64,000 bases of DNA, from assembly GCA_044229265.1 (NCBI GenBank), contig JBGATK010000001.1, forward strand, positions 35,776-99,775, read 5' to 3'. Below the pieces are notes generated by a model. The model saw only the letters and a program-made list of their open reading frames with translations. It made no database searches and was not told the DNA's origin. This stretch comes from Minisyncoccia bacterium. GTDB taxonomy: Bacteria > Patescibacteriota > Minisyncoccia > Phycocordibacterales > UBA9973. The stretch's first letter is position 1, and each line of letters begins with the position of its first letter. Shown here piece after piece: positions 4,167 through 52,423 of the stretch. The position numbers were made by a program, and so were the translations under genes.

Positions 4167-4592
4167 TTAGTCTTTTACTTCTATTCCCATACTGCGAGCA
4201 GAGCCAGCTATGATATTTATGAGTCCCTCATCGTCTTTAGCATTTAGATCCACTGCCTTTTTCTTACCAATTTCTAGAGCTTGAGCGCGAGTAATTTTGC
4301 CTACTTTCGAAACTGCATTTTTACCAGAACCTTTTTCTATGCCTGCTGCTTTTAGGATAAGTCCTGAAGCTGGTGAAGTTTTGATATCAAAATCATAAGT
4401 TCTGTCTTCGTATACACGAACTTTTACACCCACCATCTCACCCATCATAGTTTGAGTAGCAGCATTAAACTTAGTAACAAAGTCGCCGATATTAATACCA
4501 GCCTGACCAAGTGCAGGACCAAGTGGTGGAGCTGGAGTTGCCCGGCCACCCATAATTTGAAGTTTTATTTTTTTAGTTATATTCTTTGCCAT
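4167..4592 (-). CDS. rplK: 50S ribosomal protein L11
   Basis: 141 aa; MAKNITKKIKLQIMGGRATPAPPLGPALGQAGINI... is a near-universal L11 sequence. Confidence 0.95.
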   Translation of the reverse strand: MAKNITKKIKLQIMGGRATPAPPLGPALGQAGINIGDFVTKFNAATQTMMGEMVGVKVRVYEDRTYDFDIKTSPASGLILKAAGIEKGSGKNAVSKVGKITRAQALEIGKKKAVDLNAKDDEGLINIIAGSARSMGIEVKD

Positions 4593-4635
4593 GATTTTTA
4601 CTCTACTATAAATTTAATTAAATTGCAAAATTTTC

Positions 4636-4680
4636 TTAACCCCCGACGCATTAAGTCGGGGAGCCGACTTTACGTCGGCT
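4636..4680. repeat. Two consecutive GC-rich hairpins in the nusG-rplK spacer (ccccgac-N7-gtcgggg; agccgac-N5-gtcggct)
   Basis: Read directly. Same style as the ccccgac...gtcgggg hairpins at 40279-40297 and 41554-41585. Possible rplK leader structure or attenuator. Confidence 0.5.
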
Positions 4681-4687
4681 TTGCTAA

Positions 4688-5233
4688 CTAGATTTTCTTC
4701 ACCTGAAGAAAATCTAGCTCGACTGGAGTTTCGCGACCGAACATGGAAACCAAAACCTTTACTTTACCGCGTTCATTATCTACAGCGCCTACTTTACCTT
4801 CGAGGTCTTTAAACGGACCATCAGCAATGCGCACTGTTTCATCTACGGCTAGATCAATATTGTGTTTTGGTGTACCGCCATCCATTTTCTTGAACAAATA
4901 ATCCACTTCTTCCTTCTTGAGTGGTACTGGATTTACCCCTGCACCTACGAAACCTGTAACACGTGGAGTATTGCGCACGATATACCAAGAATCATCATCC
5001 ACTATCATATCTACCAATACATAACCCGGATAAACCTTTTCTTCTACTTCTACTCTTTTCCCAGCTTTGATTTTTATTTTCTTTTCTACAGGAACAATAA
5101 CATTGAAAATCTTTTCTTGCATACCCAAGGATTCGATGCGTTGTTTTAAATTACGCAAGACAACATTTTCATACCCTGCATAAGTATGAATTGCGTACCA
5201 ATTTCTAGATCCATGTGTTTCTTGTTTTGACAT
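4688..5233 (-). CDS. nusG: Transcription termination/antitermination factor NusG
   Basis: 181 aa; NGN and KOW regions (WYAIHTYAGYENVV...; GFVG...PVPL); secE-nusG-rplK synteny. Confidence 0.9.
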   Translation of the reverse strand: MSKQETHGSRNWYAIHTYAGYENVVLRNLKQRIESLGMQEKIFNVIVPVEKKIKIKAGKRVEVEEKVYPGYVLVDMIVDDDSWYIVRNTPRVTGFVGAGVNPVPLKKEEVDYLFKKMDGGTPKHNIDLAVDETVRIADGPFKDLEGKVGAVDNERGKVKVLVSMFGRETPVELDFLQVKKI

Positions 5234-6899: not shown

Positions 6900-6929
6900 C
6901 TTGTCCTCTATAGCTTTAGCGAAAGAGGA
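6900..6929 (+). repeat. Palindromic element copy: cttg tcctct-atagctttagcgaa-agagga
   Basis: 6-bp inverted arms around the GAAGCTTTAGCGAA-like core; member of the family listed in the findings. Confidence 0.6.
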
Positions 6930-6957
6930 AAAAATTAGCCCTTCGGATACCTAAGGG
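6930..6957 (-). terminator. Intrinsic terminator after murB
   Basis: Hairpin cccttcggatacctaaggg, followed on the minus strand by taatttttt. Confidence 0.55.
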
Positions 6958-6996
6958 TGAACTATTAATAATCTTATTCTAAACTAAAAGCCACAT

Positions 6997-11736: not shown

Positions 11737-13485
11737 TTATTCAGTTTCCTGCCAGCTCTCGACACTCCACCCACCCGAAGGCCCAGAAACGAAATTTGCA
11801 TTTATTAGACCCGAATCGAAAGTAATGACAGCATTATTATTTAAACTTATTTTATACCCATTTACCGATGTCGCTCCAGCATTATTGCTAACACTGACTG
11901 TACCATTCGCAGCATAAAGAACCACTGCTCCAGCATTATTACCAAGAGTTATTGCTGAAGTAGATGTAGATGTAGAAAGCGCCATTATATAACTACCTGC
12001 GGTGCCAGAGCCGTGAAAATCCGCATTATTGCCGACAGTTATAGTACCATCAGCTATAACTGCCCCTTCTCCTGATCCATAACCAGAAGATAGTCTTATA
12101 TCGACATTATTACTAAAAGAAATATTCCCTGTCACCCATAAAGTACCGGTAATAGTAAGGTCGCTATTGTTTTGAACAGTCAAATTCCCAACAATTTTTT
12201 TAGGTCCGAGTGAAGTAGTAGTGCTATCTATAGTCATATTACCTGTATATGTACCTCCGGCTAATGCTTCATCTTTCCAATCTAAAATATTTTGGTCAGA
12301 AATAGGCATCGCAATTGCTGCTGGATCAGCAAGTGATGTGTTGCACGATTTGTTATTTCCACTTCCCGTCTGGCAATAATTCGTGCCTGCGATAGTCGAA
12401 TTATTCACTGTATGAGCGTAAGCATTACCTACTCCACCAGAGCCGACAGTAATACCACTTATAAGCCCAGTGAGTCCTCCTAAATATAATTTGAAAAAGC
12501 CATCCAGCCCTCCCGGTGTAGTATTATTCCAAGTGCTACTATATTGACCTATTTTCCCAGTGCCACTACTATAACCATTTGCATTTGCACCTATATAATA
12601 ATATCTAGAAGAATTTGTTCCGCCATCAATAACTATCCAATACGTAGTACCAGCAGTAAGCTGTGGATTTGTGGACATTGGTACTGACACCCAGCCATAA
12701 GTTGTAGATATGAGCGATGCAGAAAGAGTACCAGAAGCCAGTGTAGTGGTGCTAGGTACGCCACTATTATCAGAAACAATTCGCACGGTTAGATTGCTAG
12801 GTGTGCTTACTTTTTTCAAATAAAGTTCAACCTTATTTACTACATCGGTAATGCTCGGCACAAAACTTTGCGCAAAATCTTGGGTACCATTTGCATTACC
12901 AAATTGCACATCATAAGCTGGTGTGCCGGAACCATTTGTCTGATCTGCGGTAAGAGCAGCAGAATTTGCAGATGTTGCAGATCCAGTAATACTACCAGAA
13001 CCTGTAATATTACCATTGGAATAAACACTACCTATAACACTAGAATTATTAGCCATAGTAAGACCGCCTTGACCCGACTGCACTCCATAATTAAAAGAAA
13101 TACCTGTACCTGCCTCTAAAATTATCTCATTTGCTCTATCTCTATTCCCGACATCACCAGCTGATGTAATTGTTTTTTGATTTCCCGCGTCGATAATATT
13201 TGTAGTAGCACTATAGCCATCTATATCTATAGTTTCTGTTGAGCCAATAGTTTTACCTGAATTAATTCTATAATATGCATCTTCGACGCCAGACTCTGAG
13301 AGATAGAACGATTTTTTAGCTTTTAATCCCGTATCAGCGAGCTTGTATTCAGAAACTGTTGGTGAAACCAAGCCCACAATCAAAGAAGCTGACAAAGCTG
13401 TAAAAAAAACTAGTGATACTATGAGAGCTTGACCCTTTTGATATTCATTATTATATTTATTTTTTGAAAAATTTTTTTTAAACAT
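11737..13485 (-). CDS. PilX-like minor or tip type IV pilus component (large G/S/T/N-rich secreted protein)
   Basis: 582 aa; N-terminus ...YQKGQALIVSLVFFTALSASLIVGLVS fits the PilX_N pattern (Q/R-G-x-ALIV...); last gene of the pilin block. Confidence 0.5.
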   Translation of the reverse strand: MFKKNFSKNKYNNEYQKGQALIVSLVFFTALSASLIVGLVSPTVSEYKLADTGLKAKKSFYLSESGVEDAYYRINSGKTIGSTETIDIDGYSATTNIIDAGNQKTITSAGDVGNRDRANEIILEAGTGISFNYGVQSGQGGLTMANNSSVIGSVYSNGNITGSGSITGSATSANSAALTADQTNGSGTPAYDVQFGNANGTQDFAQSFVPSITDVVNKVELYLKKVSTPSNLTVRIVSDNSGVPSTTTLASGTLSASLISTTYGWVSVPMSTNPQLTAGTTYWIVIDGGTNSSRYYYIGANANGYSSGTGKIGQYSSTWNNTTPGGLDGFFKLYLGGLTGLISGITVGSGGVGNAYAHTVNNSTIAGTNYCQTGSGNNKSCNTSLADPAAIAMPISDQNILDWKDEALAGGTYTGNMTIDSTTTSLGPKKIVGNLTVQNNSDLTITGTLWVTGNISFSNNVDIRLSSGYGSGEGAVIADGTITVGNNADFHGSGTAGSYIMALSTSTSTSAITLGNNAGAVVLYAANGTVSVSNNAGATSVNGYKISLNNNAVITFDSGLINANFVSGPSGGWSVESWQETE

Positions 13486-13497
13486 TTTAAATTTAAA

Positions 13498-13995
13498 TTA
13501 ATAACTACCACGTAAAACTACCGTGTCATAAAATGTAGCTGAATTTACACCGCCATAACGAGTAGAAGTAATAGTGAATTCTATTTTTACGGCTACACTA
13601 TTTGCTGTCGTAATTTGAGTAAAAGTAAGCCCGGAGACAGAAAGAGTGCTGGGATTTAAATTACCCACCAAAACATCATCTTCATAGAAAAGTAAATTAC
13701 TGCCTGAAAGTGTAAATTGTGAGCTATCACCAACTAGGGTGCCGTCTTCAATGCGAACTTTTAAATCAGTGCTGCTAATACTCACGATACTACTTGCCTC
13801 ACGAACTTCGCGAGCTATACGCTCCATAATATTTGCGCCTTCAGCTAATTCTATATTTATTTTTGCATTTCTGAAAGATTTAGTCAGAACTATAGTTGAT
13901 TGTATTATCAGCATTGAAAGCATTAAGAAAATAGCGATATAAAAAATCATTTCAAGTAGCGAGAATCCTTTTTTATTTTTTAAAAAATTTTTCAT
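13498..13995 (-). CDS. Prepilin-type pseudopilin (minor pilin)
   Basis: 165 aa; KKGFSLLEMIFYIAIFLMLS is a class III (prepilin peptidase) cleavage and methylation N-terminus. Confidence 0.7.
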   Translation of the reverse strand: MKNFLKNKKGFSLLEMIFYIAIFLMLSMLIIQSTIVLTKSFRNAKINIELAEGANIMERIAREVREASSIVSISSTDLKVRIEDGTLVGDSSQFTLSGSNLLFYEDDVLVGNLNPSTLSVSGLTFTQITTANSVAVKIEFTITSTRYGGVNSATFYDTVVLRGSY

Positions 13996-14002
13996 TTAAA
14001 TT

Positions 14003-14500
14003 TTAAAATAAATCCGTTATGTAAAATTTTATATTTTTCTCCATAACAGTAGTGCCTTCTGTCCAACCCACTGACACTGTTACTAATTTTGTTCCTGTAT
14101 CGAGTACTCCCCCAGAAGAAACTATATCCTGCGTAGACGCATCACGATACACATCAGAAAAAACAATCCTTCGAGTAAAAATACCTATAGTGGAAGGAGT
14201 TTGACTTACACTCCACGTTCCATTTGAAAATGAAGCATAGTAATAACTAAGTGCAGTTGGGCCAGAAATATTAGTCCAATTATTATCACGCAAAATCCGA
14301 ACTATTTCAGCTCCTTCTTCTAAAATTAAACTAGCTTGCATTTGATGAAGTGATCTACGAGAAACTTCTATTCCTTTTTGTGCTACTGCTGATGCAGAAA
14401 TAATAAGCATTACCAAAACAGCAGCGATTACCAAAAGTTCTACCATCATAAAACCTCCTTTATTTTGTTTTTTATTTTTTAAAAAATAAAACATAAACAT
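14003..14500 (-). CDS. Prepilin-type pseudopilin (minor pilin)
   Basis: 165 aa; KGGFMMVELLVIAAVLVMLII has a G|F processing site followed by a hydrophobic helix. Confidence 0.7.
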   Translation of the reverse strand: MFMFYFLKNKKQNKGGFMMVELLVIAAVLVMLIISASAVAQKGIEVSRRSLHQMQASLILEEGAEIVRILRDNNWTNISGPTALSYYYASFSNGTWSVSQTPSTIGIFTRRIVFSDVYRDASTQDIVSSGGVLDTGTKLVTVSVGWTEGTTVMEKNIKFYITDLF

Positions 14501-14961
14501 TAATTCACACTTATGTGGCCAGTTGGACTAATTGTAATTGTTTTTGTGTATGAATCTGCTGACAAAACAATAGTTCCATTTACATTTGGTGCACCATATA
14601 TTCTACTAAAATACACATCGGTAGCTCCGCCCGTTAAAGAAATAGTTGATATACTAGCAGGAGAAGAAATAGTTGTAATAATATTACTCCCTGCTAGAGC
14701 TGAATAAGTAGTCCCTTCAAAAATTATAACTTGATTATTTGCAAAATGCACACCGTACTCTTTGGAATCAAGAGAAGATATAGTATTTGTGCGAGCTTTA
14801 TTTATAGCTGAAAAAACATCAGCTGTAGAATTTTGCAAACTTTGCAGAGTACGGAAACTGCTAAATTTTGGAATTACCACCACAAGTAAAATGCCAATAA
14901 TAGCTACAACTATTAAAACTTCAATTAAATTTATACCCTTATTAAAATTATTTTTTTTCAT
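14500..14961 (-). CDS. Prepilin-type pseudopilin, GspH/FimT-like
   Basis: 153 aa; KGINLIEVLIVVAIIGILLVVVIPKF matches the GspH/FimT N-terminal consensus. Confidence 0.7.
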   Translation of the reverse strand: MKKNNFNKGINLIEVLIVVAIIGILLVVVIPKFSSFRTLQSLQNSTADVFSAINKARTNTISSLDSKEYGVHFANNQVIIFEGTTYSALAGSNIITTISSPASISTISLTGGATDVYFSRIYGAPNVNGTIVLSADSYTKTITISPTGHISVN

Positions 14962-14968
14962 AATTTAA

Positions 14969-16180
14969 TTAACCTATATTATTTAGAACAGAATAAAGTG
15001 GAGTTATCATAGACAATGCAAAAAAACCAACTCCTGTTCCAATTAAAATCATCAAAATTGGCTCAATAATAGTGGAGAGATTTTTAGTTTTATTTTCAAT
15101 TTCATTTTCATAAAAAATAGCAATTTCTGTGAGCATATCAGCTAATTTACCTGTTTCTTCGCCAACTTGAACCATCTCGGTCATCATAATAGGGTAAAGT
15201 TTTGGATTATCTTCAAAAACTTTTGCAAAAGGTGCTCCTTTTTCTACGGATTTTACTGCATCCTCCATGACTTTTTTATAATAAACATTTTGCACAACAT
15301 CACGAGTAATCTCTATGGCCCGTGTTATAGACACACCAGATAAAATAAGTGAAGAAAGAGTGCGCGCTGTCCGAGCAGTATTGAGCTCGCGTGCCATTGT
15401 ACCAAAAACTGGTAATTTTAAAACTACAAAATCTATATATTTTTGACTAGCTTTTGCAGTAAAAAGAAAATATAATCCTACTCCAAATAAAATTGCTCCT
15501 AGTAAAGTAAGTATTAAATTATTTGATATGAAATCACCAAGCCAAAGCACAAAACGTGTAGTTGGAGGTAATTTTACGCCAAGTTCTTTGAAAGTATTAG
15601 CCAGTGTAGGAACCACGAAAGCAAACATTAATATACCTATTATTACCATAGCGGAAATAATTACCCCTGGGTACATCATCGCGCCTTTAATTTTTTTTGT
15701 AAGAGAATTAGATTTTTCTAAATTCATGCCTATCTCAGTAAGAGCTCCAGCTAAATTACCGGACTCTTCCCCAGCACGAACCATGGAAACAAAAAGTGGC
15801 GAAAAAGCTTTTGGTTTTTTAGCGAGCCCACTCGATAATGTTCCGCCATTATTAATTTCATCGATAAGACTAGCAATTATTTTTTTAAAAAACTCTTTTG
15901 GAGTTTGTTTTTCTAAAACCGAAAGAGCTCTACCTGCTGACAAGCCAGCTTTTAACATGCCTGCTAAATTTTTGGTAAATAAAATTAAATCCTGCATTTT
16001 CACCCCACCAAAAATGCCATCAAAAGAAATATTCCAAGAATTCTTTTTTTGTTCTTCAATTAGAATTGGTATTGAACCTTTTTCTCTAAAATCACGGGCC
16101 ACTGCAAAGCGATCCACAGCTTCTGTAGTGCCTTCTATTATATTTCCCTCTTTATTTTTTATTTTATATTTAAAAAGCAT
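14969..16180 (-). CDS. pilC: Type IV pilus assembly platform protein PilC (GspF family)
   Basis: 403 aa; two repeated GspF domains with three transmembrane segments; N-terminus MLFKYKIKNKEGNIIEG... as in PilC. Confidence 0.9.
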   Translation of the reverse strand: MLFKYKIKNKEGNIIEGTTEAVDRFAVARDFREKGSIPILIEEQKKNSWNISFDGIFGGVKMQDLILFTKNLAGMLKAGLSAGRALSVLEKQTPKEFFKKIIASLIDEINNGGTLSSGLAKKPKAFSPLFVSMVRAGEESGNLAGALTEIGMNLEKSNSLTKKIKGAMMYPGVIISAMVIIGILMFAFVVPTLANTFKELGVKLPPTTRFVLWLGDFISNNLILTLLGAILFGVGLYFLFTAKASQKYIDFVVLKLPVFGTMARELNTARTARTLSSLILSGVSITRAIEITRDVVQNVYYKKVMEDAVKSVEKGAPFAKVFEDNPKLYPIMMTEMVQVGEETGKLADMLTEIAIFYENEIENKTKNLSTIIEPILMILIGTGVGFFALSMITPLYSVLNNIG

Positions 16181-16189
16181 TATATAAAT

Positions 16190-17941
16190 TTACTCAGAAA
16201 CCACTCTAAATACTTCTTCTACGCTAGTATTCCCTAGTGCTGCTTGAAAAATACCATCTTCTATCATGGTCATCATTCCTTCTTTTTTTGCTTGAGCTTC
16301 AATATCGTCTTGTGAAGCACCTTTTAAAACTAATTCCTTGATAGCACCTGAAACCTTTAATACTTCATGAATACCTACACGGCTTTTATAGCCATCTTCC
16401 GATTCAGCACTTTTTACTGGCCGATAAAATGCTACTTTATCCCAACTATCATCTTTGCCAATAATATTTTCAGCTTTTAAAAAACCTAACATTCTATCTA
16501 AATCTACAATTTTAGCTAAATTTGCTAATTCGTCTTTATTCATAAAATATTTTTCTTTTGATGAAGTTAAACGTCGTACAAGACGCTGAGCAATAATAGT
16601 TTTCACAGTAGAAATAATCAGAAATGGCAATGCGCCCATATCTATCATACGAGGAACAGCACCAGCAGCTGAATTAGTGTGAATTGTAGAAAGCACTAAG
16701 TGTCCAGTAAGTGAAGCATTAATAGCAAGAGATACAGTTTCCCCATCACGAATTTCCCCTACCATTACGATATCAGGGTCCTGACGAAGAAGTGCACGTA
16801 GTCCTTGTGCAAAAGTTAAACCTATTTCTGGTTTTACTTGTGTTTGATTTACTCTTGGCATTTGATATTCCACTGGGTCTTCTACCGTAGAAATATTTAC
16901 ATCTGGCTTATTTAACATATCGAGCATAGTGTAAAGCGTAGTAGTTTTACCCGAACCGGTAGGGCCAGTAGCTAGTATCATACCTGTTTTTTGTTTCATG
17001 GATTCATAAATTTTCTCTAATCCTTCACCATGAAAACCTAATCCTTCCAACGAGAAACCATGAGAATTTTCTTTTAAAAGACGAATCACAGTTTTTTCAC
17101 CGAAAAATGTAGGTAGTGTAGAAACACGAAAAGAAACTTTTTCACCATTTTGTTCTATTTTAAAACGACCATCTTGTGGGAGTCTTTTTTCATCAAGCTT
17201 TAAATTCGACAATACTTTTATGCGTGCAGTTATGCCTGGTGCTGCACTTTTATCGAGTGTCATGGCATCATGCAAAATACCATCAATACGGTAGCGCACT
17301 ACTAATTTTTCTTCACCTGGTTCTATGTGAATATCAGAAGCATTTTGCAAAATAGCATGAAAAACTAATGAATCCACGATCTTAACTACAGGCAAATCTT
17401 CAGCCATTTCTTTTAATTCTTGCGCTGATTTTTCTCCTCCACCCTCATCGTTCTTTAATTTTAAAGAATTTGATTCTTCTTGAATAATATTTGAAAATTC
17501 TGCTTGTAAACTTTTGCGATATTGCACAAGAGCACTTTTTATAGATGCACTATCTGTGAGGCGTGGTAAAATTTTGAGCCCGGAACGCTTTTTAATAAAA
17601 TCAATAACAGGCAAATCGTCCACGTCGAGCATAGCTACTTCTAATTCTTTTTCTGTTTTTTTATAACCAATAATATTATAATTTCGAGCAATTGGCTCTG
17701 GGATAAGTGAAAGTATAGCTATATCTATTTTTTCTTTTTCCAAAGAAACAAAAGGTATACCTAGAACATGGGCTTCTATTTTGCGAAGCTCTGTTTCTTT
17801 TAATTTATTTTGAATAAGAAGAGTATCAGAAAGGGTTTGCCCTTTTTCACTCGCAATTTTTGCCATATCATTTAAATCCGATTCTGAAATTAATTTACTA
17901 TCAAGTAAAAATTTCTTGAGTTGTTTTTCATCTATCTCCAT
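16190..17941 (-). CDS. pilB: Type IV pilus assembly ATPase PilB (GspE family)
   Basis: 583 aa; GspE_N-like N-terminus, Walker A GPTGSGKTTTLYTML, Asp and His boxes. Confidence 0.9.
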   Translation of the reverse strand: MEIDEKQLKKFLLDSKLISESDLNDMAKIASEKGQTLSDTLLIQNKLKETELRKIEAHVLGIPFVSLEKEKIDIAILSLIPEPIARNYNIIGYKKTEKELEVAMLDVDDLPVIDFIKKRSGLKILPRLTDSASIKSALVQYRKSLQAEFSNIIQEESNSLKLKNDEGGGEKSAQELKEMAEDLPVVKIVDSLVFHAILQNASDIHIEPGEEKLVVRYRIDGILHDAMTLDKSAAPGITARIKVLSNLKLDEKRLPQDGRFKIEQNGEKVSFRVSTLPTFFGEKTVIRLLKENSHGFSLEGLGFHGEGLEKIYESMKQKTGMILATGPTGSGKTTTLYTMLDMLNKPDVNISTVEDPVEYQMPRVNQTQVKPEIGLTFAQGLRALLRQDPDIVMVGEIRDGETVSLAINASLTGHLVLSTIHTNSAAGAVPRMIDMGALPFLIISTVKTIIAQRLVRRLTSSKEKYFMNKDELANLAKIVDLDRMLGFLKAENIIGKDDSWDKVAFYRPVKSAESEDGYKSRVGIHEVLKVSGAIKELVLKGASQDDIEAQAKKEGMMTMIEDGIFQAALGNTSVEEVFRVVSE

Positions 17942-24046: not shown

Positions 24047-24073
24047 TCCTCCTACGCCAAAGGCTACGGAGGA
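24047..24073 (-). repeat. Palindromic element copy (variant, reverse orientation): tcctcc-tacgccaaaggctac-ggagga
   Basis: Arms tcctcc/ggagga; the core is related to ttcgccaaagcttc at 35370. Confidence 0.5.
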
Positions 24074-24110
24074 TAAATAAAAATTTAATAGTTAATATAA
24101 AATTAAATAT

Positions 24111-35282: not shown

Positions 35283-35323
35283 ATGTTTATATAAATGTTA
35301 ATTACTAATATCTATATTATAGA

Positions 35324-35338
35324 TGAACGAGCGTTCAC
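35324..35338. promoter_or_regulatory. LexA operator (Cheo-box type, GAAC-N4-GTTC): tGAACgagcGTTCac
   Basis: Perfect GAAC-N4-GTTC palindrome read directly, immediately followed on the minus strand by TATAAT. Confidence 0.65.
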
Positions 35339-35363
35339 CTGTCAAACATACCTCTGTGGAAAA

Positions 35364-35389
35364 CCCTGCTTCGCCAAAGCTTCGCAGGG
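35364..35389 (-). repeat. Palindromic element copy (reverse orientation): ccctgc-ttcgccaaagcttc-gcaggg
   Basis: The core is the reverse complement of GAAGCTTTGGCGAA. Lies just 3' of the comM stop; may also act as its terminator (followed on the minus strand by tttt). Confidence 0.6.
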
Positions 35390-35395
35390 CAGGCT

Positions 35396-40274: not shown

Positions 40275-40320
40275 CTTGCCCCGACCTTGCGTCGGGGTTG
40301 TGTCCATACCCGGTATGGAC
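40275..40320. repeat. pnp 5' leader hairpins: cttg ccccgac-cttgc-gtcgggg, then gtccatacc-cgg-tatggac
   Basis: Read directly; first hairpin 40279-40297 (with the cttg prefix, 40275-40297), second 40302-40320; GC-rich structures immediately upstream of the pnp ATG. Confidence 0.5.
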
Positions 40321-40469
40321 ATTAGTTCGTGGACAGACTGGAGTATTGTTTCATACATATATATATGTACAAACACTACTATGTGTCTACCCGCGAACCG
40401 ATTAACTTGTAAAATATCTCAATACTCTTGAAATATGTTTTTATACTAGCATTTTGAAGATTTAAAATC

Positions 40470-40521: not shown

Positions 40522-40896
40522 TTAGTGAACCATTGATACTGTTCTTCCTTCAATTTTTGATACATAAAGAAAAAATTCAACCCAATCCTCTTTTAGGTAA
40601 CCTAAAAACATGCCTTCATTAAATTCACACCATCTTACACAATCTTTTTCCCACTGTTCTTTAGTGAGTTTACATTTACTTGATCTACCAATTTGGAAAC
40701 GAATAATTCCTAATGACAAACACTCTTTAATCTCTTTTTCCTTAGTATGATCAAAATCTTTGGATTCTAAAAACATTTTGATAATACCTTCTTTAAACCC
40801 TGTGTGATCAGCAAGTGTAGCTAACATTGAAAAGTTTTCAGTACTTATGTTTTGATTTTTAAGTAAAGAAATAGCCATTTCTCTAAAATTTTTCAT
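40522..40896 (-). CDS. Hypothetical protein (Cys-containing)
   Basis: 124 aa ORF; no family recognised; sits between rpsO and pnp. Confidence 0.45.
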   Translation of the reverse strand: MKNFREMAISLLKNQNISTENFSMLATLADHTGFKEGIIKMFLESKDFDHTKEKEIKECLSLGIIRFQIGRSSKCKLTKEQWEKDCVRWCEFNEGMFLGYLKEDWVEFFLYVSKIEGRTVSMVH

Positions 40897-41019: not shown

Positions 41020-41529
41020 TTATCTAGCGCCGATGATGTATTTGCGAGGATTGTCGGATAGGTCGACGAAGTCGTCGACTGTTTCGATCAGTGCTGAGGA
41101 AGTTGATTTTCCAAAGGAAACCACTTCGACTTGCACACCCATAGTCTGCAAATATTCTACGAGGGGTATATAGTCGCCATCACCACTAATGATGACTACA
41201 GAGTCTAGTCGTGGAGCCATCTTGATGGCATCCACAGTCAAGCCTACATCCCAATCACCCTTTTTTGTACCAGAGTGAAATACTTGCAGGTCTTTTGTCT
41301 TGGTTTCAATGCCGAGCTTTGTAAGGGCTTCGAAAAAATTCTTCTCGTCACCTGCTTCGGTAGTGATGACATAAGCCACAGCTCGCACGAGCTTGCGCCC
41401 TGCTACTGCATCTTTCAAAACCACACCAAAATTTACCCGTCCTTTATATAAATTGCGAGCAGAGTGATACAAATTTTGTGTATCTATGAACACGCCCACA
41501 CGTTGTTCTTTATGTTTAATTACAGTCAT
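41020..41529 (-). CDS. NYN-domain (LabA-like) predicted RNase
   Basis: 169 aa; RVGVFIDTQNLYHSARNLY...VITTEAGDEKNFFEAL...VIISGDGDYIPLVEYLQ shows the NYN acidic motifs; visibly GC-richer than its flanks. Confidence 0.75.
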   Translation of the reverse strand: MTVIKHKEQRVGVFIDTQNLYHSARNLYKGRVNFGVVLKDAVAGRKLVRAVAYVITTEAGDEKNFFEALTKLGIETKTKDLQVFHSGTKKGDWDVGLTVDAIKMAPRLDSVVIISGDGDYIPLVEYLQTMGVQVEVVSFGKSTSSALIETVDDFVDLSDNPRKYIIGAR

Positions 41530-41549
41530 ATATTTAAATTTGTTCTTTA

Positions 41550-41585
41550 CTTGCCCCGTATGAAGCCTATGGCTTTCGTTCGGGG
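41550..41585 (+). repeat. GC hairpin element: cttg ccccg-(tatgaagcctatggctttcgtt)-cgggg
   Basis: Read directly; ccccg/cgggg arms as at 4641 and 40279. Confidence 0.45.
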
Positions 41586-41619
41586 TGTTTTATTACTGTC
41601 ATATATTTTATTAAAAATT

Positions 41620-41681
41620 CTTGTCCTGCGTAGCTTCTTGTCCTCCCGAAACTTTACGTGAAGGAGGATAGCGAAGCAGGG
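41620..41681 (+). repeat. Nested pair of palindromic elements: tcctgcgtagctt [cttg tcctcc-cgaaactttacgtgaa-ggagga] tagcgaagcaggg
   Basis: The outer copy is interrupted between gtagctt and tagcgaa (compare the intact copy at 47450) by a complete inner copy carrying its own cttg prefix. Confidence 0.6.
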
Positions 41682-41710
41682 ATTAAATTCGACCTTTGTT
41701 ATATTTTAGC

Positions 41711-42150: not shown

Positions 42151-43098
42151 ATGAAAAACGAGTTATCTAACCTAAAAAGACAATTTCTAGAATACCTGGA
42201 AATAGAAAAAGGTTCTGCGTTGCGCACTATAGAGAATTATGACCATTATTTAACGAAGATTTTTGAAAATGGGGGTTTTGAAAAAGTAGATGATATCACT
42301 CCTGAAGCAATTCGTGAATATCGCCTCAAATTAAATCGCCAAATTAGTGGCAATAACAAAAAATCTGGCAAAACCACTAGCAAAAAAACTCAAAATTACT
42401 ACATGATAGCTCTGCGCATGTTTTTAAAATACTTAGCCAAGCGAGATATCACTGCTATGCCAGCCGATAAAATAGAACTTGCAAAGATTCCCGAACGTTC
42501 ACTCGACTTAATAACTCCCGCTGAACTCTCGCGCCTACTAAACGCACCTCTGCTTCGTCAAGACTTCGCAGGGCAAGCCAAAAATATAGACATAAAAACA
42601 CTTAGAGATAAAGCAATATTGGAATTACTTTTTTCTACAGGACTTCGTGTTTCCGAACTATGCTCACTGACAAATGACATAGATATAAATACCGAAGAGT
42701 TTGCAATTCGTGGAAAAGGCGGAAAGGTTCGCGTGGTGTTCGTATCCGATGAAGCACGCAGTGCTGTAAAAGCTTACCAAAATGCTCGCAAAGACATGAA
42801 TGATGCGATGTTTGTGCAAGTAGGCAAAGAAATAAAAAGCAAAGAACCTACCCCGCTGACCCGCCGATCAATCGAAAGAATTGTAAAAAGTTATGCTACT
42901 AAAGCTGGTATTTATAAAAAAGTTACCCCGCACGTACTGCGACACTCATTTGCCACTGATCTACTTAGTAATGGTGCGGATATTCGCAGTGTGCAAATAA
43001 TGCTCGGCCACGCTAGTATTTCAACTACTCAAGTTTACACTCACCTTACCGACAAACAACTTCGTGATACACATAAAAAATTCCACGGAAAAAGATAA
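42151..43098 (+). CDS. Tyrosine site-specific recombinase XerC/XerD-like
   Basis: 315 aa; N-terminal SAM-like domain; catalytic region ...RDKAILELLFSTGLRVSEL...HVLRHSFATDLLSNGADIRSVQIMLGHASISTTQVYTH. Confidence 0.85.
   Translation: MKNELSNLKRQFLEYLEIEKGSALRTIENYDHYLTKIFENGGFEKVDDITPEAIREYRLKLNRQISGNNKKSGKTTSKKTQNYYMIALRMFLKYLAKRDITAMPADKIELAKIPERSLDLITPAELSRLLNAPLLRQDFAGQAKNIDIKTLRDKAILELLFSTGLRVSELCSLTNDIDINTEEFAIRGKGGKVRVVFVSDEARSAVKAYQNARKDMNDAMFVQVGKEIKSKEPTPLTRRSIERIVKSYATKAGIYKKVTPHVLRHSFATDLLSNGADIRSVQIMLGHASISTTQVYTHLTDKQLRDTHKKFHGKR
42547..42573 (-). repeat. Degenerate palindromic element copy inside the xerC-like CDS (cctctgc-ttcgtcaagacttc-gcaggg)
   Basis: Core ttcgtcaagacttc against ttcgccaaagcttc at 35370; translates in-frame as PLLRQDFAGQA in a variable loop between the two Xer motifs. 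Confidence 0.4.
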
Positions 43099-47025: not shown

Positions 47026-48633
47026 TTATTTTCTAACTCCGTGCTTGCTATGCAATTTTTCTACCTCAGCTTCTTCAAGCTCTTCTTTTTTTTCTTTAGC
47101 TTTTTCGCCTAGGGCTCGCAGGTCTGCATCAGAAAGTTGCTCTAGTTCCCCTACTCTATTTTTTAAATATTCTATTTCATTCTTTTCTGGATTTTCCAAT
47201 ACTTCTTCTAGTAATGCATTTAATATCCATCCCATTCTCGGCCCCGGCTTCATTTGCATATCTTTCATAAGAAAATTTCCATCAATTTTTAATTGAGATA
47301 CCGATATAGGGTCCCGCAGGCATTCCTCTATCATCGCATGATATTTGCGCAAGCGGTAAGGTGCCTCTTTTTTGGCCATACCTACCCTGTCGCATTCTCG
47401 CACTTTCATTAAAGTCCAAATCGGATGTTCGTAAGAATCATCCGATTTGTCCTGCGTAGCTTTATGCGAAGCAGGACCCTTGTCCTCCGAAGCTTTAGCG
47501 AAGGAGGATACTTTCACAATTATTCGGCGCACTGCAGAAAGAGTGATCTGCTCTGTATCAGAGAAAAACATATGATTCCTCACCAAACTCTCCACCATAT
47601 TTATTTCATCACGAGAAAATTTCATCCGCTCCATTATCTTCTTTGCCATCCGCGCACCCACTACTTCATGACCATAAAATGTATAAGCTTTCTTTTCCCC
47701 CCTCCTGCGAGTTCTCGGCTTGCCTATATCGTGCATAAGGGCAGACATACGAATAACAAACGACCAATTTTTATCTGCCGCGTGGCCGAGTGCCTGAACT
47801 AAGTGTTCAAACACATCATACCTATGTGCACCTCCCTGCTCACAATTTATTCCTTCTTCGAGTTCTGGGATAATATATTTTAATAAACCAAATTTTTGCA
47901 ACATTCCAATTCCAGACATTGGATTATTCGACATAATTATTTTTACAAATTCATCTCTAATTCTTTCTTGCGAAATATTTTTTATCAAATCTGCATTTTT
48001 TACGATACTTGTCATCGTCTCGCCTGATATAGCAAAATCAAGTTCGCAAGCAAAACGAACTGCGCGAAGCATTCGAAGTGCATCCTCATTGAATCTCTCA
48101 TCCGCATTACCTACTGTTCTTATTACTTTGTCCTTTATGTCCTTTATACCCCCAAACATGTCTGTTATGCTTATTTTTTCTTTTGCACTATTAGACATAG
48201 CGAGTGAATTCACTGTAAAATCACGTCTTTTAAGATCATCTTCTATGTTTTGACTAAACCTTACCTCGTCTGGGTGCCTATTATCACTATATTTACCTTC
48301 TAGTCGATACGGAGTAACCTCTATAGTTTCATAAGAAACATCTTCTTCTTGTCCAGATCCGACTTGGACAGATGTTTCAAGTGAAACTTTAGGTATAAAT
48401 ACTGCCACAGTACCAAATTTATTTTCATAAACAGTTTTTTCAAATAAAGATATAATCTGATCTGGTGTAGCATTAGTTGTCAGATCCCAATCCTTTGGTT
48501 TTCTATCTAAAATCAAATCTCTAACACAACCACCAACTAAAAAGGCTGAAAAACCTCCCTGAGAGAGCTTTTCTATCACGATCAATACTTCTTTCGGAAT
48601 GTTTCTTGTGAAATTGTTTGAGTTATTTTCCAT
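47026..48633 (-). CDS. cca: CCA-adding enzyme / poly(A) polymerase-family tRNA nucleotidyltransferase with an HD domain
   Basis: 535 aa; head domain GGCVRDLILDRKPKDWDLTT; HD region HDIGKP; contains a low-complexity insert at residues ~371-393 encoded by the palindromic elements. Confidence 0.85.
   Translation of the reverse strand: MENNSNNFTRNIPKEVLIVIEKLSQGGFSAFLVGGCVRDLILDRKPKDWDLTTNATPDQIISLFEKTVYENKFGTVAVFIPKVSLETSVQVGSGQEEDVSYETIEVTPYRLEGKYSDNRHPDEVRFSQNIEDDLKRRDFTVNSLAMSNSAKEKISITDMFGGIKDIKDKVIRTVGNADERFNEDALRMLRAVRFACELDFAISGETMTSIVKNADLIKNISQERIRDEFVKIIMSNNPMSGIGMLQKFGLLKYIIPELEEGINCEQGGAHRYDVFEHLVQALGHAADKNWSFVIRMSALMHDIGKPRTRRRGEKKAYTFYGHEVVGARMAKKIMERMKFSRDEINMVESLVRNHMFFSDTEQITLSAVRRIIVKVSSFAKASEDKGPASHKATQDKSDDSYEHPIWTLMKVRECDRVGMAKKEAPYRLRKYHAMIEECLRDPISVSQLKIDGNFLMKDMQMKPGPRMGWILNALLEEVLENPEKNEIEYLKNRVGELEQLSDADLRALGEKAKEKKEELEEAEVEKLHSKHGVRK
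47450..47508 (+). repeat. Tandem pair of palindromic elements inside the cca CDS: tcctgc-gtagctttatgcgaa-gcagga, spacer cccttg, tcctcc-gaagctttagcgaa-ggagga
   Basis: Read directly; on the coding (minus) strand it translates in-frame as VKVSSFAKASEDKGPASHKATQD. Confidence 0.7.
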
Positions 48634-49655: not shown

Positions 49656-49666
49656 ATAATTATCTG

Positions 49667-49737
49667 TGCGGGATAGGGGAATCGAACTCCTAACCTCAGT
49701 TTGGAAAACTGATGTTTTACCATTAAACTAATCCCGC
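49667..49737 (-). tRNA. tRNA-Gly (anticodon TCC)
   Basis: Acceptor GCGGGAT/ATCCCGC, anticodon stem TCAGT/ACTGA with loop TTTCCAA; the T-stem has one mismatch in my hand fold. Confidence 0.65.
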
Positions 49738-49770
49738 CTTCGCTAAAGCTTCGTCGGGCAGGCCCGCAAA
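49738..49770 (-). repeat. Degenerate palindromic-element copy between two tRNA genes (core ttcgctaaagcttcg, then cgggcaggcccg)
   Basis: The core is the exact reverse complement of GAAGCTTTAGCGAA. Confidence 0.45.
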
Positions 49771-49781
49771 AAACTCTAGTG

Positions 49782-49852
49782 TCGGGCCGCCGCGAATCGA
49801 ACGCGGTCTAAACGGTCCCAAACCGCTTGTACTACCGGTATACTACGGCCCG
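49782..49852 (-). tRNA. tRNA-Pro (anticodon TGG)
   Basis: Acceptor CGGGCCG/CGGCCCG, anticodon loop TTTGGGA, T-arm CCGCG-TTCGATT-CGCGG. Confidence 0.75.
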
Positions 49853-49944: not shown

Positions 49945-50730
49945 TCAAACTAATTGAGTATTAATTTTAATTTCAAATTTAATAATTCCTAACCAGCGTA
50001 GGAATCTAAGAATTTGAAAGAATGGATCAATTTCACCTTTCTTTACAGCAAAATTTGCACGTTCTGGATGTTTATGATGATTATTTTGAAACCACTCACC
50101 GCCAAGTGCAAAATCAGCATGGAGAACATTTTGTGAATCATCCTCTAATTCAAAATTTCTATAACTAAGCAAGCTTTTTTTGTGTCCATACCAATTTACT
50201 AGAGAGCCTTGTATAGCACCAGAAAAAATATTTAGTAAAATCAGGGGCCAAAGCCACACAGTAGGGCAGAACATGTAGTATAAATAAATGTACAAAAATA
50301 TAAAACCATACATGGAAATACTACTATTTGCAATATTTTCAAAATCTGGCCAACTAGGAAATTTTTTGTCTTTCCAAAGCTTTATTAAGCTGCTTTTACC
50401 TTTATTTATTTCTTCTAAAATTTTTAAAGCTCTGTGCATCATACGCACAACGTCAAAGAAAAAACTTTTCCAAAATCTAGGCGAATGTGGATCGCCTTTT
50501 TCATCAGAATGTAAATGATGTGTTAAATGCATTATTGCATAAGATTTCGGGCACATATAAGCTGAGCCCATGGTAAGATAAGTCTTAATCCAAAATAACT
50601 TTTCCCAAAATAAATTTGTAAAAGATATGGATTTGTGAGTAGCGTATCGATGAATAAAAACACTATGATAAAAAAGCGTTATTCCATACCAAAATACACC
50701 AAAAATCAAGAAAAATAAAAAAGGAGTCAT
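49945..50730 (-). CDS. Membrane fatty-acid desaturase, acyl-CoA delta-9 (stearoyl-CoA desaturase)-like
   Basis: 261 aa; histidine boxes HRYATHKS, HLTHHLHSDEKGDPHSP, NWYGHKK and QNNHHKHPERA match the HxxxxH/HxxHH/QxxHH arrangement of delta-9 desaturases. Confidence 0.75.
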   Translation of the reverse strand: MTPFLFFLIFGVFWYGITLFYHSVFIHRYATHKSISFTNLFWEKLFWIKTYLTMGSAYMCPKSYAIMHLTHHLHSDEKGDPHSPRFWKSFFFDVVRMMHRALKILEEINKGKSSLIKLWKDKKFPSWPDFENIANSSISMYGFIFLYIYLYYMFCPTVWLWPLILLNIFSGAIQGSLVNWYGHKKSLLSYRNFELEDDSQNVLHADFALGGEWFQNNHHKHPERANFAVKKGEIDPFFQILRFLRWLGIIKFEIKINTQLV

Positions 50731-50840
50731 AATATTTTAATTTAAATTTTCAAGAACTAAAACCATCTCTGAAATTATAACACAATGCTAAATCTAAAAA
50801 ATTATTTGCAATAAATATAAAAATATGGAAAACTATCGAT

Positions 50841-51044
50841 ATGGAACACGAAACTTTTTGGGACCTCTTTAATAGTGCTGCGCATTGGCAGTTTGAGATC
50901 TTTTTAATCATTATTTTTGATGGTATTATTGGTTTACTAATTTGGCCAAAAATTAAAAAATGGTTTACTCATCATGAAGAAGACGATGCAAAAATAGCTT
51001 CACTAGAAAAAAGGCTAGATATGTTAGAAAGAAAAGACAAATAA
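50841..51044 (+). CDS. Small membrane protein
   Basis: 67 aa; one transmembrane segment, then a charged coiled tail. Confidence 0.35.
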   Translation: MEHETFWDLFNSAAHWQFEIFLIIIFDGIIGLLIWPKIKKWFTHHEEDDAKIASLEKRLDMLERKDK

Positions 51045-51048
51045 TCTG

Positions 51049-51097
51049 GGCAAAATAAAAATCCTCTTACATTGTAGAGGATTTTTATTTTGCCCAG
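51049..51097. terminator. 21-bp perfect inverted repeat with a 5-nt loop between convergent genes (gggcaaaataaaaatcctcta cattg tagaggatttttattttgccc)
   Basis: Read directly; overlaps the last codons of the M23 peptidase gene. Confidence 0.6.
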
Positions 51098-52236
51098 CTA
51101 TTATCAAAACCCGGATTCTTTGCACCTCGAACTTCAAAGTGTAAATGCGGACCAGTCGAGCGACCAGTATTACCTACATAACCAATTACTTGACCTTGAA
51201 TAACTTCATCTCCAACACCTACAGCCAATTTGGATTGATGAGCGTAGAAAGTTTGAGTGCCATTTGGATGAGCAATAATTATAAGATTTCCATAAGCACC
51301 ATTCCATCCATATTTTGCAAAGATTACCTTACCCGAAGCTGCTGCATAAATAGGTGTGCCGATTTTACCGCAAGCTAAGTCCACAGCGTATGTATCATGC
51401 TTACCTTGAGTTTGGATACCACATTTAAGCGGTCTAATATAATAACCACCGGAAAACTTATTATTATCACTGGATTGATTTGTATTTGAAGGTTTCTTCG
51501 GAGCTATAGTTTCTACATGAATTTCAGCACCGGGGACGATTATTTCATCACCAATAGCGAGTTTAGCGTCTTCGTCCAAGTTATTAAATGCAAATATATC
51601 ATCTGGATCAACTTTGTAAAGTTTAGCAATACTTTTAATGGTTTGCCCTTTAACGACAATGTGTTTTACTCCAGAAATTGGCAAAATAATCAGGGCATCA
51701 CCTTCTTTTAATTTTTCACCAGCCTTAAGGCCATTTGCCCAAAGTATCGTATTATTTGTTACTCCGAATAGTTTAGCTATAGTGGGCACAGTATCACCCT
51801 TACGAACTACATATATACTTATATCTTCAGAAGTATAATCACCATCTTTGCCAGTAAGGGCTCCGAGAGGGCTAACTGTCGGTAAAAGGGCATTTTCTGA
51901 TAAAATGTTAATTTCTTTAGATTCATCAATCTTAGAGTCTTTGGAGTTTTTATCTTCTACAATAGAAGAGCTAGACACATTGGCTTGCAAAAGGTTCAGG
52001 TTTTGAGAATTTTGGTCTGAAACAGGCTCGGTTTCTTCAATTTCTTTTTCATCACTGCCAATGCCAAACAAATCAGCGAAGAATCCGGCTTGGGCTCGCG
52101 GTGGAAAAGCAAAAATCCCTATTGCGAGGAATAGAGTAAATATCTGAATAAATAAGGATATTTTAGAGATTTTTTTTATAAAACAATTTTGTATCGCAAG
52201 AAATCTATCTGGCTTCAGGCATAAATATGCGAACAA
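51085..52236 (-). CDS. LysM-domain M23-family peptidoglycan endopeptidase
   Basis: 383 aa; N-terminal transmembrane segment; two LysM-like segments (DTVPTIAKLFGV...; QTIKSIAKLYKV...); M23 core ...HDTYAVDLA...GNLIIIAHPNGTQTFYAHQSKL...GNTGRSTGPHLHFEV. Confidence 0.85.
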   Translation of the reverse strand: MFAYLCLKPDRFLAIQNCFIKKISKISLFIQIFTLFLAIGIFAFPPRAQAGFFADLFGIGSDEKEIEETEPVSDQNSQNLNLLQANVSSSSIVEDKNSKDSKIDESKEINILSENALLPTVSPLGALTGKDGDYTSEDISIYVVRKGDTVPTIAKLFGVTNNTILWANGLKAGEKLKEGDALIILPISGVKHIVVKGQTIKSIAKLYKVDPDDIFAFNNLDEDAKLAIGDEIIVPGAEIHVETIAPKKPSNTNQSSDNNKFSGGYYIRPLKCGIQTQGKHDTYAVDLACGKIGTPIYAAASGKVIFAKYGWNGAYGNLIIIAHPNGTQTFYAHQSKLAVGVGDEVIQGQVIGYVGNTGRSTGPHLHFEVRGAKNPGFDNSWAK

Positions 52237-52423
52237 GCTTATACAGAACGACCATATGAATATGTGCTGTAAAAAATAAAGTTCTTACGAAATTACTGTC
52301 CTTCTAGCGTATCAGCCATGTAAACCCTGCTATCTATCTGTGTAAATTCATACTATCATAAAAACCATCCTAGCTCAATACTATGCAATAATTGCTGTGG
52401 ATAAGCAAAATGGGGTATAATTA

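Follow-up and report, generated by a model that had tools for sequence, protein, structure and literature searches.

The window analysed here, a 64-kb stretch of the genome of a Minisyncoccia (CPR) bacterium with a GC content of ~34%, contains nine copies of one hairpin element. The region 41548-41683, located between rpsO (S15) and a NYN-domain gene, both on the minus strand, holds two of these copies, one nested inside the other, and a tagged hairpin that belongs to another sequence family. The preliminary description of this DNA had placed copies at 6904, 24047, 35364, 41624, 41641, 47450, 47483, 49738 and 42547, and all nine are present at these places. It did not mention that those at 42548, 47446 and 47479 lie inside genes.

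The 26-nt pattern YCCTSYRWAGCTTTRGCGAARSAGGR has three exact matches in the window and none in 100 dinucleotide-preserving shuffles. The 14-nt core GAAGCTTTAGCGAA, with up to three mismatches allowed, is matched 25 times, compared to 9.0 +/- 3.1 expected from shuffles. A covariance model (R1), built from an alignment (A1) of copies from other genomes and run on the window without filters, recovered eight copies, with E-values from 4e-11 to 0.024. The ninth is the split outer copy of the nested pair. The copies, and the other hairpins and features discussed below, are the following.

4641..4680, plus strand: double hairpin, CCCCGAC..GTCGGGG followed by AGCCGAC..GTCGGCT, between nusG and rplK.
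6900..6929, plus strand: canonical copy, CTTG TCCTCT ATA GCTTTAGC GAA AGAGGA, an exact pattern match (42.5 bits, E 4.9e-9), in the spacer between murB-like and FKBP genes, 8 nt upstream of the FKBP start codon (6891).
24047..24077, minus strand: copy with inner stem GCC-TTT-GGC, GTA/GTA internal loop and tag TTTA (31.7 bits, E 4e-6; structural scan), in a divergent spacer, 34 nt upstream of nusA (identified by Pfam).
35364..35393, minus strand: copy, CCTG CCCTGC GAA GCTTTGGC GAA GCAGGG (45.3 bits), after the comM stop codon and before the promoter region (DnaA-box-like / SOS-box) of the gene that follows.
40279..40297, plus strand: hairpin, CCCCGAC CTTGC GTCGGGG, directly upstream of the pnp start codon.
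41540..41602, minus strand: orphaned duplicate of the NYN 5' end, consisting of ATGACAGTAATAAAACA, an insert and TAAAGAACAA.
41550..41585, plus strand: tagged hairpin of 36 nt, CTTG CCCCG TATGAAGCC TAT GGCTTTCGT TCGGGG, of another sequence family.
41620..41682, plus strand: nested pair, with the outer tag at 41620-41623, the left part of the outer copy at 41624-41636 and its right part at 41669-41681.
41637..41668, plus strand: inner copy of the pair, CTTG TCCTCC CGAAACTTTACGTGAA GGAGGA, 32 nt, with a diverged loop (17.8 bits, E 0.024).
42548..42577, minus strand: copy with inner stem GTC-TT-GAC, in the XerC-like gene (39.3 bits).
47446..47476, plus strand: copy, TTTG TCCTGC GTA GCTTTATGC GAA GCAGGA, in the gene for the CCA-adding enzyme (34.7 bits).
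47479..47508, plus strand: consensus copy, CTTG TCCTCC GAA GCTTTAGC GAA GGAGGA (50.1 bits, E 4e-11).
49733..49762, minus strand: copy, CCTG CCCGAC GAA GCTTTAGC GAA GGCGGG (42.7 bits), between tRNA-Pro and tRNA-Gly (the flanking tRNAs occupy 49666-49737 and 49781-49852), its 3' arm overlapping the first 5 nt of tRNA-Gly.

The separate terminator that had been described beside the copy at 6904 was recognized as well: the terminator-like hairpin at ~6930-6965 is a distinct structure that adjoins copy 6900.

The unit is ~30 nt long, a 4-nt tag plus a 26-nt hairpin, and is laid out as tag, 6-bp arm, G[A/T]A, GC-closed inner stem, GAA and second 6-nt arm. The inner stem (variants GC..GC, GCC..GGC, GTC..GAC and GCGC..GCGC) comprises 2-4 bp with a loop of 2-4 nt and is preceded by a purine-rich 3x3 internal loop on one strand, G[A/T]A opposite GAA. 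Mirror symmetry between the halves is lacking, given that the core reads GAA...GAA, not GAA...TTC, so that the duplex is an imperfect palindrome. In predicted folds, the tag strand reaches -4.9 kcal/mol for a single copy, against -3.8 kcal/mol for the complement, and -11.3 against -7.6 kcal/mol for the nested pair. Among 143 copies collected with a pattern that allowed pairing without forcing it, arm positions 5 and 22 are Watson-Crick paired (C-G or G-C) in ~142. In an alignment of 88 sequences, eight of the nine pairs change on both sides, and the observed covariation values were reached in none of 500 shuffles; this set was pre-filtered for pairing, which makes the percentage of paired positions circular but not the covariation.

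Of the tags, 84% have G at position -1, 71% have T at -2 and 54% have C at -4. Besides CTTG, the forms CCTG, TTTG, GATG and TTTA occur elsewhere; neither GTAG nor CGTC ranks among the 15 most frequent tags, all of which occur two or more times. The 3' flanks of the 143 copies lack the T-run that is expected of an intrinsic terminator. The TCCTCC/GGAGGA arms were also considered as a sequestered ribosome-binding site (Shine-Dalgarno), a reading that was rejected because ~20% of the copies carry CCTGC/GCAGG arms. Rfam searches of the whole window at the gathering score returned four tRNAs only, a permissive scan (E up to 10) of 47400-47560 yielded nothing meaningful and no Rickettsia palindromic element (RPE) family, and there was no match in five loci with orthologous copies.

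The nested pair reads, on the plus strand, CTTG TCCTGC GTAGCTT / CTTG TCCTCC CGAAACTTTACGTGAA GGAGGA / TAGCGAA GCAGGG A. The insert at 41637-41668 consists of its own CTTG and a 28-nt hairpin (32 nt in total) and occupies the apical loop of the outer copy. Removal of these 32 nt restores a perfect consensus copy, the outer halves 41624-41636 and 41669-41681 rejoining to TCCTGCGTAGCTTTAGCGAAGCAGGG, an exact fit to the 26-nt pattern, which confirms the earlier claim that a copy is split in its loop by a complete second copy carrying its own CTTG. The junction shows no target duplication. The pair sits in an AT-rich stretch upstream of the NYN start that is uninterrupted in relatives, and the rpsO-NYN spacer measures 212 nt in the window compared to 27-203 nt (mostly 27-160 nt) in relatives.

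In the relatives, the NYN gene starts with uninterrupted ATGACAGTAATAAAACATAAAGAACAA; in the window, the sequence reads ATGACAGTAATAAAACA / CCCCGAACGAAAGCCATAGGCTTCATACGGGGCAAG / TAAAGAACAA, and 41586-41602 is the reverse complement of ATGACAGTAATAAAACA. From the uninterrupted site of the relatives, it follows that the 36-nt tagged hairpin (CTTG plus a 32-nt hairpin, CCCCG...CGGGG; -8.9 kcal/mol, z -3.9) inserted into the coding start without target duplication, the junction being AAAACA / 36 nt / TAAAGAACAA. A second, intact NYN start, with its ATG at 41529, follows the split one, and a tandem duplication of ~35 nt supplies this working start.

Three of the nine window copies lie in frame in intact genes, two in the gene for the CCA-adding enzyme and one in that for XerC. 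The former (47026..48633, minus strand) encodes 535 residues, with Pfam domains on both sides of the inserts. Copy 47446..47476 encodes GPASHKATQDK and copy 47479..47508 encodes SSFAKASEDK, and the protein reads ...VKVS SFAKASEDK GPASHKATQDK SDDSYEHP IW... around them; the tandem arrangement reported earlier is real, in the form of a direct tandem at 47446-47508. Approximately 110 of 120 homologues have VKVG-KEN-IW at the insertion point, that is, an empty site. The best homologues, with identities of 61-75%, carry the names Nomurabacteria, Pacebacteria or Minisyncoccia, which places the window in the Paceibacteria/Nomurabacteria part of the CPR. A few homologues hold other palindrome-like inserts at this point, for example, PADAKALAGK. 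On two further Paceibacteria contigs, canonical copies sit at other codons of the CCA-enzyme gene, in both orientations (L220, 373-402 and 506-535; L221, 368-397 and 455-484).

The gene for the XerC-like recombinase (42151..43098) likewise has Pfam domains on both sides of its insert. Here, copy 42548-42577 encodes LLRQDFAGQA, and 10 of 12 syntenic relatives show an exact gap of 10 residues. Insertions into genes can survive because the consensus can be read through in four of its six frames. Such copies survive where the 30-nt length and the reading frame keep the gene open, and are presumably translated as a 10-residue loop.

For comparison of empty and filled sites, 80 syntenic loci of related CPR genomes were collected via PNPase. 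The gene order CCA ... xth - xerC - rpsO - NYN - pnp - comM is conserved in these relatives. Downstream of comM, the stop codon leads directly into GTTATCCACAG...TTGACAGGTGAACGCTCGTTCAC in the relatives, and the window has copy 35364-35393 in between; L141, L150 and L152 have the same comM 3' flanks, with the element absent. Altogether, seven units have an orthologous empty site in syntenic relatives, namely, six of the nine family copies (both copies in the CCA gene, the XerC copy, the copy downstream of comM and both nested copies) and the 36-nt hairpin at 41550-41585. This is the outcome of a check that the preliminary description had proposed. Its suggestion that intergenic copies coincide with expected terminators or leader structures did not hold up, considering that two of the four intergenic sites, the rpsO-NYN spacer and the 3' flank of comM, were compared and both lack the element in relatives, and that most copies are without a T-run.

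In the relatives, model R1 detected five copies in 1.08 Mb of syntenic DNA, in agreement with a filter-free structural scan. The density is ~140 copies per Mb in the window versus ~5 per Mb in the relatives, a roughly thirtyfold difference. The window genome has undergone a burst of copies not shared by its relatives, and copy number is patchy among relatives. Strain-level polymorphism was sought by exact-protein look-ups; the genome occurs in one sample only, with an identical arrangement.

The second subfamily that had been proposed, with CCCCGAC arms at 4641, 40279 and 41554, was upheld for one site and not for the other two, and model R1 scores none of 4641-4680, 40279-40297 and 41550-41585 as family members. 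The unit at 41550-41585 is a genuine tagged insertion, because the site is uninterrupted in the relatives, and its hairpin is unrelated in sequence to the main family. The hairpin at 40279-40297 is probably part of the pnp leader and may be inherited, not a demonstrated mobile unit: in the relatives, a hairpin of varying sequence follows a conserved leader at the same position relative to pnp (TCCCGACCTAGGTCGGGA in L143). A hairpin very similar to 40279-40297 occurs elsewhere in L184. The double hairpin at 4641-4680, to which model R1 assigns 11.6 bits only (E 1.1), belongs to another repeat family of these CPR lineages, composed of CCCCGAC/AGCCGAC double hairpins; the junction GTCGGGG+AGCCGAC / CTCCGACC recurs in L194, L164 (five copies) and L213.

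The main family is not peculiar to the window genome and was found across many phyla. When the 26-nt pattern was run against a GTDB collection with one genome per species, it returned at least 120 loci, with less than one match expected by chance as estimated from the ~43 bits of the pattern. By record title, the matches listed include about 26 Patescibacteria, 31 Bacteroidota, 21 Proteobacteria and 24 members of the Planctomycetota/Verrucomicrobiota/Lentisphaerota/Kiritimatiellota/Omnitrophota (PVC). Nitrospirota, Acidobacteriota, Bdellovibrionota, Desulfobacterota, Elusimicrobiota, Fibrobacterota and Dependentiae are also among them. One archaeal MAG among the matches listed may be a binning error. 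Only two of the at least 120 matches listed come from cultured isolates, and none comes from Bacillota, Actinomycetota, Cyanobacteriota or Chloroflexota. The absence of these four phyla among the matches listed is unlikely to be sampling noise because they form a large share of the one-genome-per-species collection; we treat it as a lead only.

Across about a dozen phyla, with host GC content ranging from 33 to 69%, the sequence is the same nearly letter for letter, and the flanks are unrelated. The 30-mer of copy 47479-47508 is found identically in loci of Phycisphaerae (L047), Gammaproteobacteria (L090) and Lentisphaeria (L113, L121). Arm and loop subtypes are common to all groups, and the preferred tag varies by group: CTTG in CPR, CCTG in PVC, GATG/CTTG in Proteobacteria and TTTA/TTTG in Bacteroidota. 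Independent nesting in the apical loop was detected in a Doudnabacteria MAG and a Patescibacteria MAG (L058, L078), at slightly different positions of the loop and without duplication. Neighbouring copies in inverted orientation were seen only occasionally (L070, L117, L138).

About a quarter of the copies lie inside long open frames, with orientations split roughly evenly in the in-ORF copies outside the window, and the others fall between genes. Of 146 copies, 13 (~9%) are located no more than 60 nt from a tRNA gene, and some of these abut either end of the gene; tRNA targeting as a rule was rejected, as these numbers indicate enrichment only. Orthologous copies are conserved while their flanks diverge in three Nitrospirales-like MAGs and in three Bacteroidales MAGs. 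The consensus has no match in 5,426 E. coli genomes or in 50,697 GenBank phage records, and is effectively absent from the 72,556 plasmids of PLSDB, with two weak 22/24 matches in Sinorhizobium only. In IMG/VR, the element was found on 18 stretches of 14 contigs.

The inserted unit consists of tag plus hairpin, and insertion is exact, without target-site duplication, as seen at four exactly defined junctions (the nested copy of the window, L058, L078 and the NYN site). The landing sites are AT-rich spacers, tRNA borders, the apical loop of another copy and protein-coding DNA; the first three are places prone to become single-stranded. The earlier proposal of a dispersed family that inserts into new sites, its own copies included, is thus supported by the empty orthologous sites, the nested junction and the nested cases in other phyla.

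On balance, we favor the interpretation that the element is a non-autonomous, REP-like single-strand hairpin transposon of ~30 nt that is moved by a HUH-type enzyme, and consider it reasonably probable. Under this model, one strand would fold as a hairpin of single-stranded DNA; a trans-acting single-strand nuclease/transferase would recognize the asymmetric hairpin together with the tetranucleotide at its foot and cut 5' of the tag and 3' of the hairpin; and the excised piece would be pasted into exposed single-stranded DNA. The likely type of enzyme, as a candidate class only, would be HUH, as in IS200/IS605 TnpA, the REP-associated RAYT and the IS91 family. Elements of the IS91 family cause no target duplication and need 5'-CTTG beside the palindromic end (PMC13181058), and a guide tetranucleotide is found at the hairpin foot of IS200/IS605 ends and REPs (PMC6006769). 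The covarying structure of the family, the strand asymmetry, the empty sites, the lack of duplication, the burst and the repeated colonization of CCA genes are further points in favor of the interpretation as a whole.

We identified no transposase or HUH gene in the 64-kb window (58 ORFs inspected by eye, Pfam run on ten) and no recurrent non-housekeeping protein family near copies (3,264 ORFs clustered all-against-all, from ~140 loci of up to ~15 kb). Pfam searches of the ORFs between copies on a viral contig and in Taklimakanibacter returned one unrelated HNH gene, which is not recurrent elsewhere. Elements of the IS200/IS605 type usually show strand bias. Here, orientation relative to the likely direction of replication in the window is 5-6 versus 4, without bias in this small count, and there is no convincing bias relative to transcription. 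REPs and their enzymes are lineage-specific. The occurrence of the same sequence in about a dozen phyla, which a simple co-evolving pair of enzyme and repeat does not predict, counts against the HUH-type model, as do the orthologous copies kept in the Nitrospirales-like and Bacteroidales MAGs, which could mean selection for a host function.

The literature was searched by nucleotide and peptide strings and by topic, and within this incomplete coverage no description of the element was found. It is unusual in size, in having copies in frame within coding sequences and in being nearly identical in sequence over many phyla. In the way it works, it comes closest to a tagged REP, and its effect on proteins resembles that of the RPEs. 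In common with the REP/REPIN-RAYT systems (PMC3733652, PMC6006769), it is an imperfect GC-rich palindrome in the range of 20-40 nt with a conserved unpaired tetranucleotide at the 5' foot, occurs in many copies, mostly intergenic and sometimes in genes, and forms single-strand hairpins with mismatches. However, its tag is CTTG/CCTG-like, whereas that of REPs is GT[AG]G or CGTC, and the REP papers examined mention no CTTG/CAAG tag. REPs form inverted doublets (REPIN/BIME), whereas the window copies stand alone, follow each other as a direct tandem (47446/47479) or are nested (41620-41682). The sequence of REPs is specific to lineages, in contrast to the identical 26-30-mers shared by CPR, Bacteroidota, Proteobacteria, PVC and others; a third of the window copies are in frame in genes, unlike REPs; and no RAYT gene, which REPs typically flank, was found in the 64-kb window or in ~140 loci of up to ~15 kb.

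The ends of the IS91 family (HUH Y2, rolling-circle) and the palindrome-associated elements derived from IS200/IS605 also lack target duplication, use single-strand chemistry, as proposed for the present element, and have a subterminal palindrome adjoining an essential tetranucleotide (5'-CTTG for IS91 itself; PMC13181058). They differ in being kilobase elements or derivatives of 100-300 nt with two distinct ends and a transposase gene, whereas here the hairpin and tag are the whole element. MITEs are ~50-500 bp long and have terminal inverted repeats with target-site duplications on their outer sides, in contrast to the 30-36 nt and the absence of duplication at the four junctions described above.

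RPEs are ~100-150 bp long and confined to Rickettsia and relatives. They and the QMITE-type elements of Coxiella resemble the present family as selfish palindromic DNA in frame in conserved genes, where a short stretch of peptide is added and the protein is not destroyed, and in that the same gene is colonized at different sites in different genomes. Nevertheless, the element described here is 30 nt long and spread over many phyla, the window host belongs to the CPR, and there is no sequence relationship with RPEs. The GC clusters of yeast mitochondria leave short AT duplications. Like the repetitive hairpin-forming elements of sponges (PMC2800124), they are short, GC-rich mobile hairpins of AT-rich genomes that settle in spacers, in one another and at times in genes; both are organellar and have other sequences, whereas the family analysed here is bacterial and common to many phyla.

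Movement of the element by a route other than HUH single-strand transposition appears unlikely to us. Such a route might be, for instance, integration of a reverse-transcribed hairpin RNA, insertion of ~30-nt pieces at cruciforms by a recombinase or in the manner of a spacer integrase, or the action of a conserved housekeeping enzyme, such as a type IA topoisomerase, on the C-N-N-G tag. It would agree with the lack of an HUH gene near any copy examined and with the preferential insertion into hairpin loops. The identity across phyla would be easier to understand if a universal host enzyme set the sequence requirements, and the lack of Bacillota and Actinomycetota among the at least 120 matches listed hints at a host factor with that distribution. 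Nevertheless, nothing positive was found for any of the enzymes named: there is no reverse transcriptase in the window (ORFs inspected by eye), and insertions by integrases and most recombinases leave duplications or need a defined target, neither of which was seen.

The hairpin might instead be a selected cis-acting module kept by its hosts, with the identity across phyla reflecting constraint by a conserved partner, an explanation to which we give little credence. Such a module could be an RNA or DNA structure that stabilizes transcripts, punctuates operons or binds a conserved host protein. The orthologous copies that remain intact between diverged flanks in the Nitrospirales-like and Bacteroidales MAGs are its main support, to which can be added the almost invariant core in phyla of 33-69% GC, the 5' or 3' untranslated positions of several window copies and the ~9% of canonical copies within 60 nt of a tRNA gene. 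A host-maintained module is difficult to reconcile with the empty orthologous positions in close relatives, with the occurrence of copies in both orientations and in frame in conserved enzymes, at different codons in different genomes, with an insertion that destroyed a gene start (NYN), and with the nesting of copies in each other; furthermore, most copies lack a T-run and hence are not intrinsic terminators, and there is no Rfam family. The idea that chance produced these GC-rich palindromes, or that they stem from assembly or adapter artefacts, as might be suspected given that nearly all genomes bearing the element are metagenome-assembled, is effectively refuted by the shuffles (0 of 100 with an exact match versus three observed) and model E-values down to 4e-11, as well as by the in-frame copies in conserved genes with intact domains on both sides, the unique flanks at every locus, the presence of the element in two cultured isolates and in long-read complete chromosomes, and the same arrangement in an independent assembly of the same sample.

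Transposition of a single-stranded hairpin by an HUH-type enzyme is the interpretation we retain as the most probable. The unit is only 30 nt long with exact junctions, and once a candidate is found, the mobilizing enzyme would be easily testable with oligonucleotides and, if found, would be a compact tool for single-strand DNA insertion. Annotation pipelines could recognize insertions of the element and thereby avoid spurious ORFs and fragmented assemblies.

More speculatively, and only as a tentative proposal, the family may be among the smallest and, by host range, most widely spread bacterial mobile elements, moved by an enzyme not yet connected with it, with a sequence held constant over Gracilicutes-type phyla and CPR and with 10-residue loops written into essential proteins. 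The fact that the sequence does not drift between phyla would be explained if the mover were a conserved host enzyme and not a dedicated transposase. If the interpretation retained above is correct, the insertions would account for many odd low-complexity peptides (SFAKASEGK, SEALAKEG, LRSFSEGG, PSLKLRRT) in proteins predicted from metagenomes and would be a source of variation in protein length in the reduced genomes of CPR. One tiny sequence would then link the repeat content of very distant, mostly uncultured bacteria and would serve to trace either DNA exchange between phyla or a host function that they have in common.

The start of the NYN gene bears the mark of an insertion. A segment of about 35 nt (AAATATATGAC[A/T]GTAAT[A/T]AAACATAAAGAACAA) is doubled in tandem at 41527-41602; the upstream copy is split by the 36-nt tagged hairpin at 41550-41585, which belongs to a different sequence family from the element, and the intact gene begins from the downstream copy. 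This arrangement looks like either a rescue that followed insertion into the start of an essential gene, or an earlier duplication that made the insertion tolerable. The spacer between NYN and pnp spans 753 nt in the window, compared with about 125-250 nt in relatives, and holds two features:

40522-40896, minus strand: ORF of 124 residues between NYN and pnp
about 40298-40400, minus strand: 5' leader of pnp, conserved among relatives

The ORF had no match in a Pfam search and no homologue in the NYN-pnp spacer of relatives, and is probably a lineage-specific gene insertion. The leader, found upstream of pnp in the related CPR loci L140-L160, follows the conserved pattern ...gttcg..ttcagaca..agtagtgtt..[hairpin]..gaacaatact.tagtctga..acgaacta and is separated from the start codon by a variable GC hairpin. 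It had no match in Rfam, and is a candidate for a PNPase autoregulatory leader of Paceibacteria.

A double-hairpin repeat, in which CCCCGAC-loop-GTCGGGG is directly followed by (A/C)(G/T)CCGAC..., is distinct from the element. It occurs at 4641-4680, between nusG and rplK, and in three related CPR genomes (L164, L194 and L213), the first of which carries five copies within 18 kb.

Conserved signals were also found upstream of the LexA-like gene, and their order (DnaA-box-like, TTGACA, SOS-box-like, TATAAT) is kept in the relatives L141, L150 and L152:

34498..35058, minus strand: LexA-like gene (upstream region, 35316-35363)
35355-35363, minus strand: DnaA-box-like TTTTCCACA
35340-35345, minus strand: TTGACA, after the DnaA-box-like sequence
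35325-35336, minus strand: SOS-box-like palindrome GAAC-GCTC-GTTC
35316-35321, minus strand: TATAAT

At about 50000-52400, the cumulative GC skew reaches its minimum and gene orientation changes from mostly minus to plus, a combination that may point to an origin of replication. No dnaA gene was noticed anywhere in the window. By eye, a run of genes with pilin-like N-termini was also recognized, along with larger neighbors similar to the assembly ATPase and platform proteins of type IV pili:

11737-17941, minus strand: genes with pilin-like N-termini, e.g. KKGFSLLEMIFYIAIF

Many database homologues of the CCA-adding enzyme (P0009, P0020, P0040, P0044 and others) are extended at the N-terminus, for example by MVEHVLAKDETGVRFSLAAH or MDITPVFGTVVGGSNPSGCT. 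Judged by eye, these extensions look like a translated upstream tRNA gene; if so, the start codons of these proteins are mis-called.

Beyond the window, the cultured alphaproteobacterium Taklimakanibacter lacteus (L063) has an HNH endonuclease gene (4438-4953) within a cluster that comprises six copies of the element together with three tRNA genes; no similar gene was found near element copies elsewhere. Three Nitrospirales-like MAGs (L013, L067 and L103) share a conserved non-coding block of about 150 nt around the element, with the layout ACTCTCCTTCGCCAGAATGCCC...ATGAATGGCGAGGAGAG-[element]-CT..GGCTACGGAGAGTTCCG and the element at an identical position in all three. This block, which had no Rfam match, may represent a previously undescribed structured RNA that carries the element hairpin.
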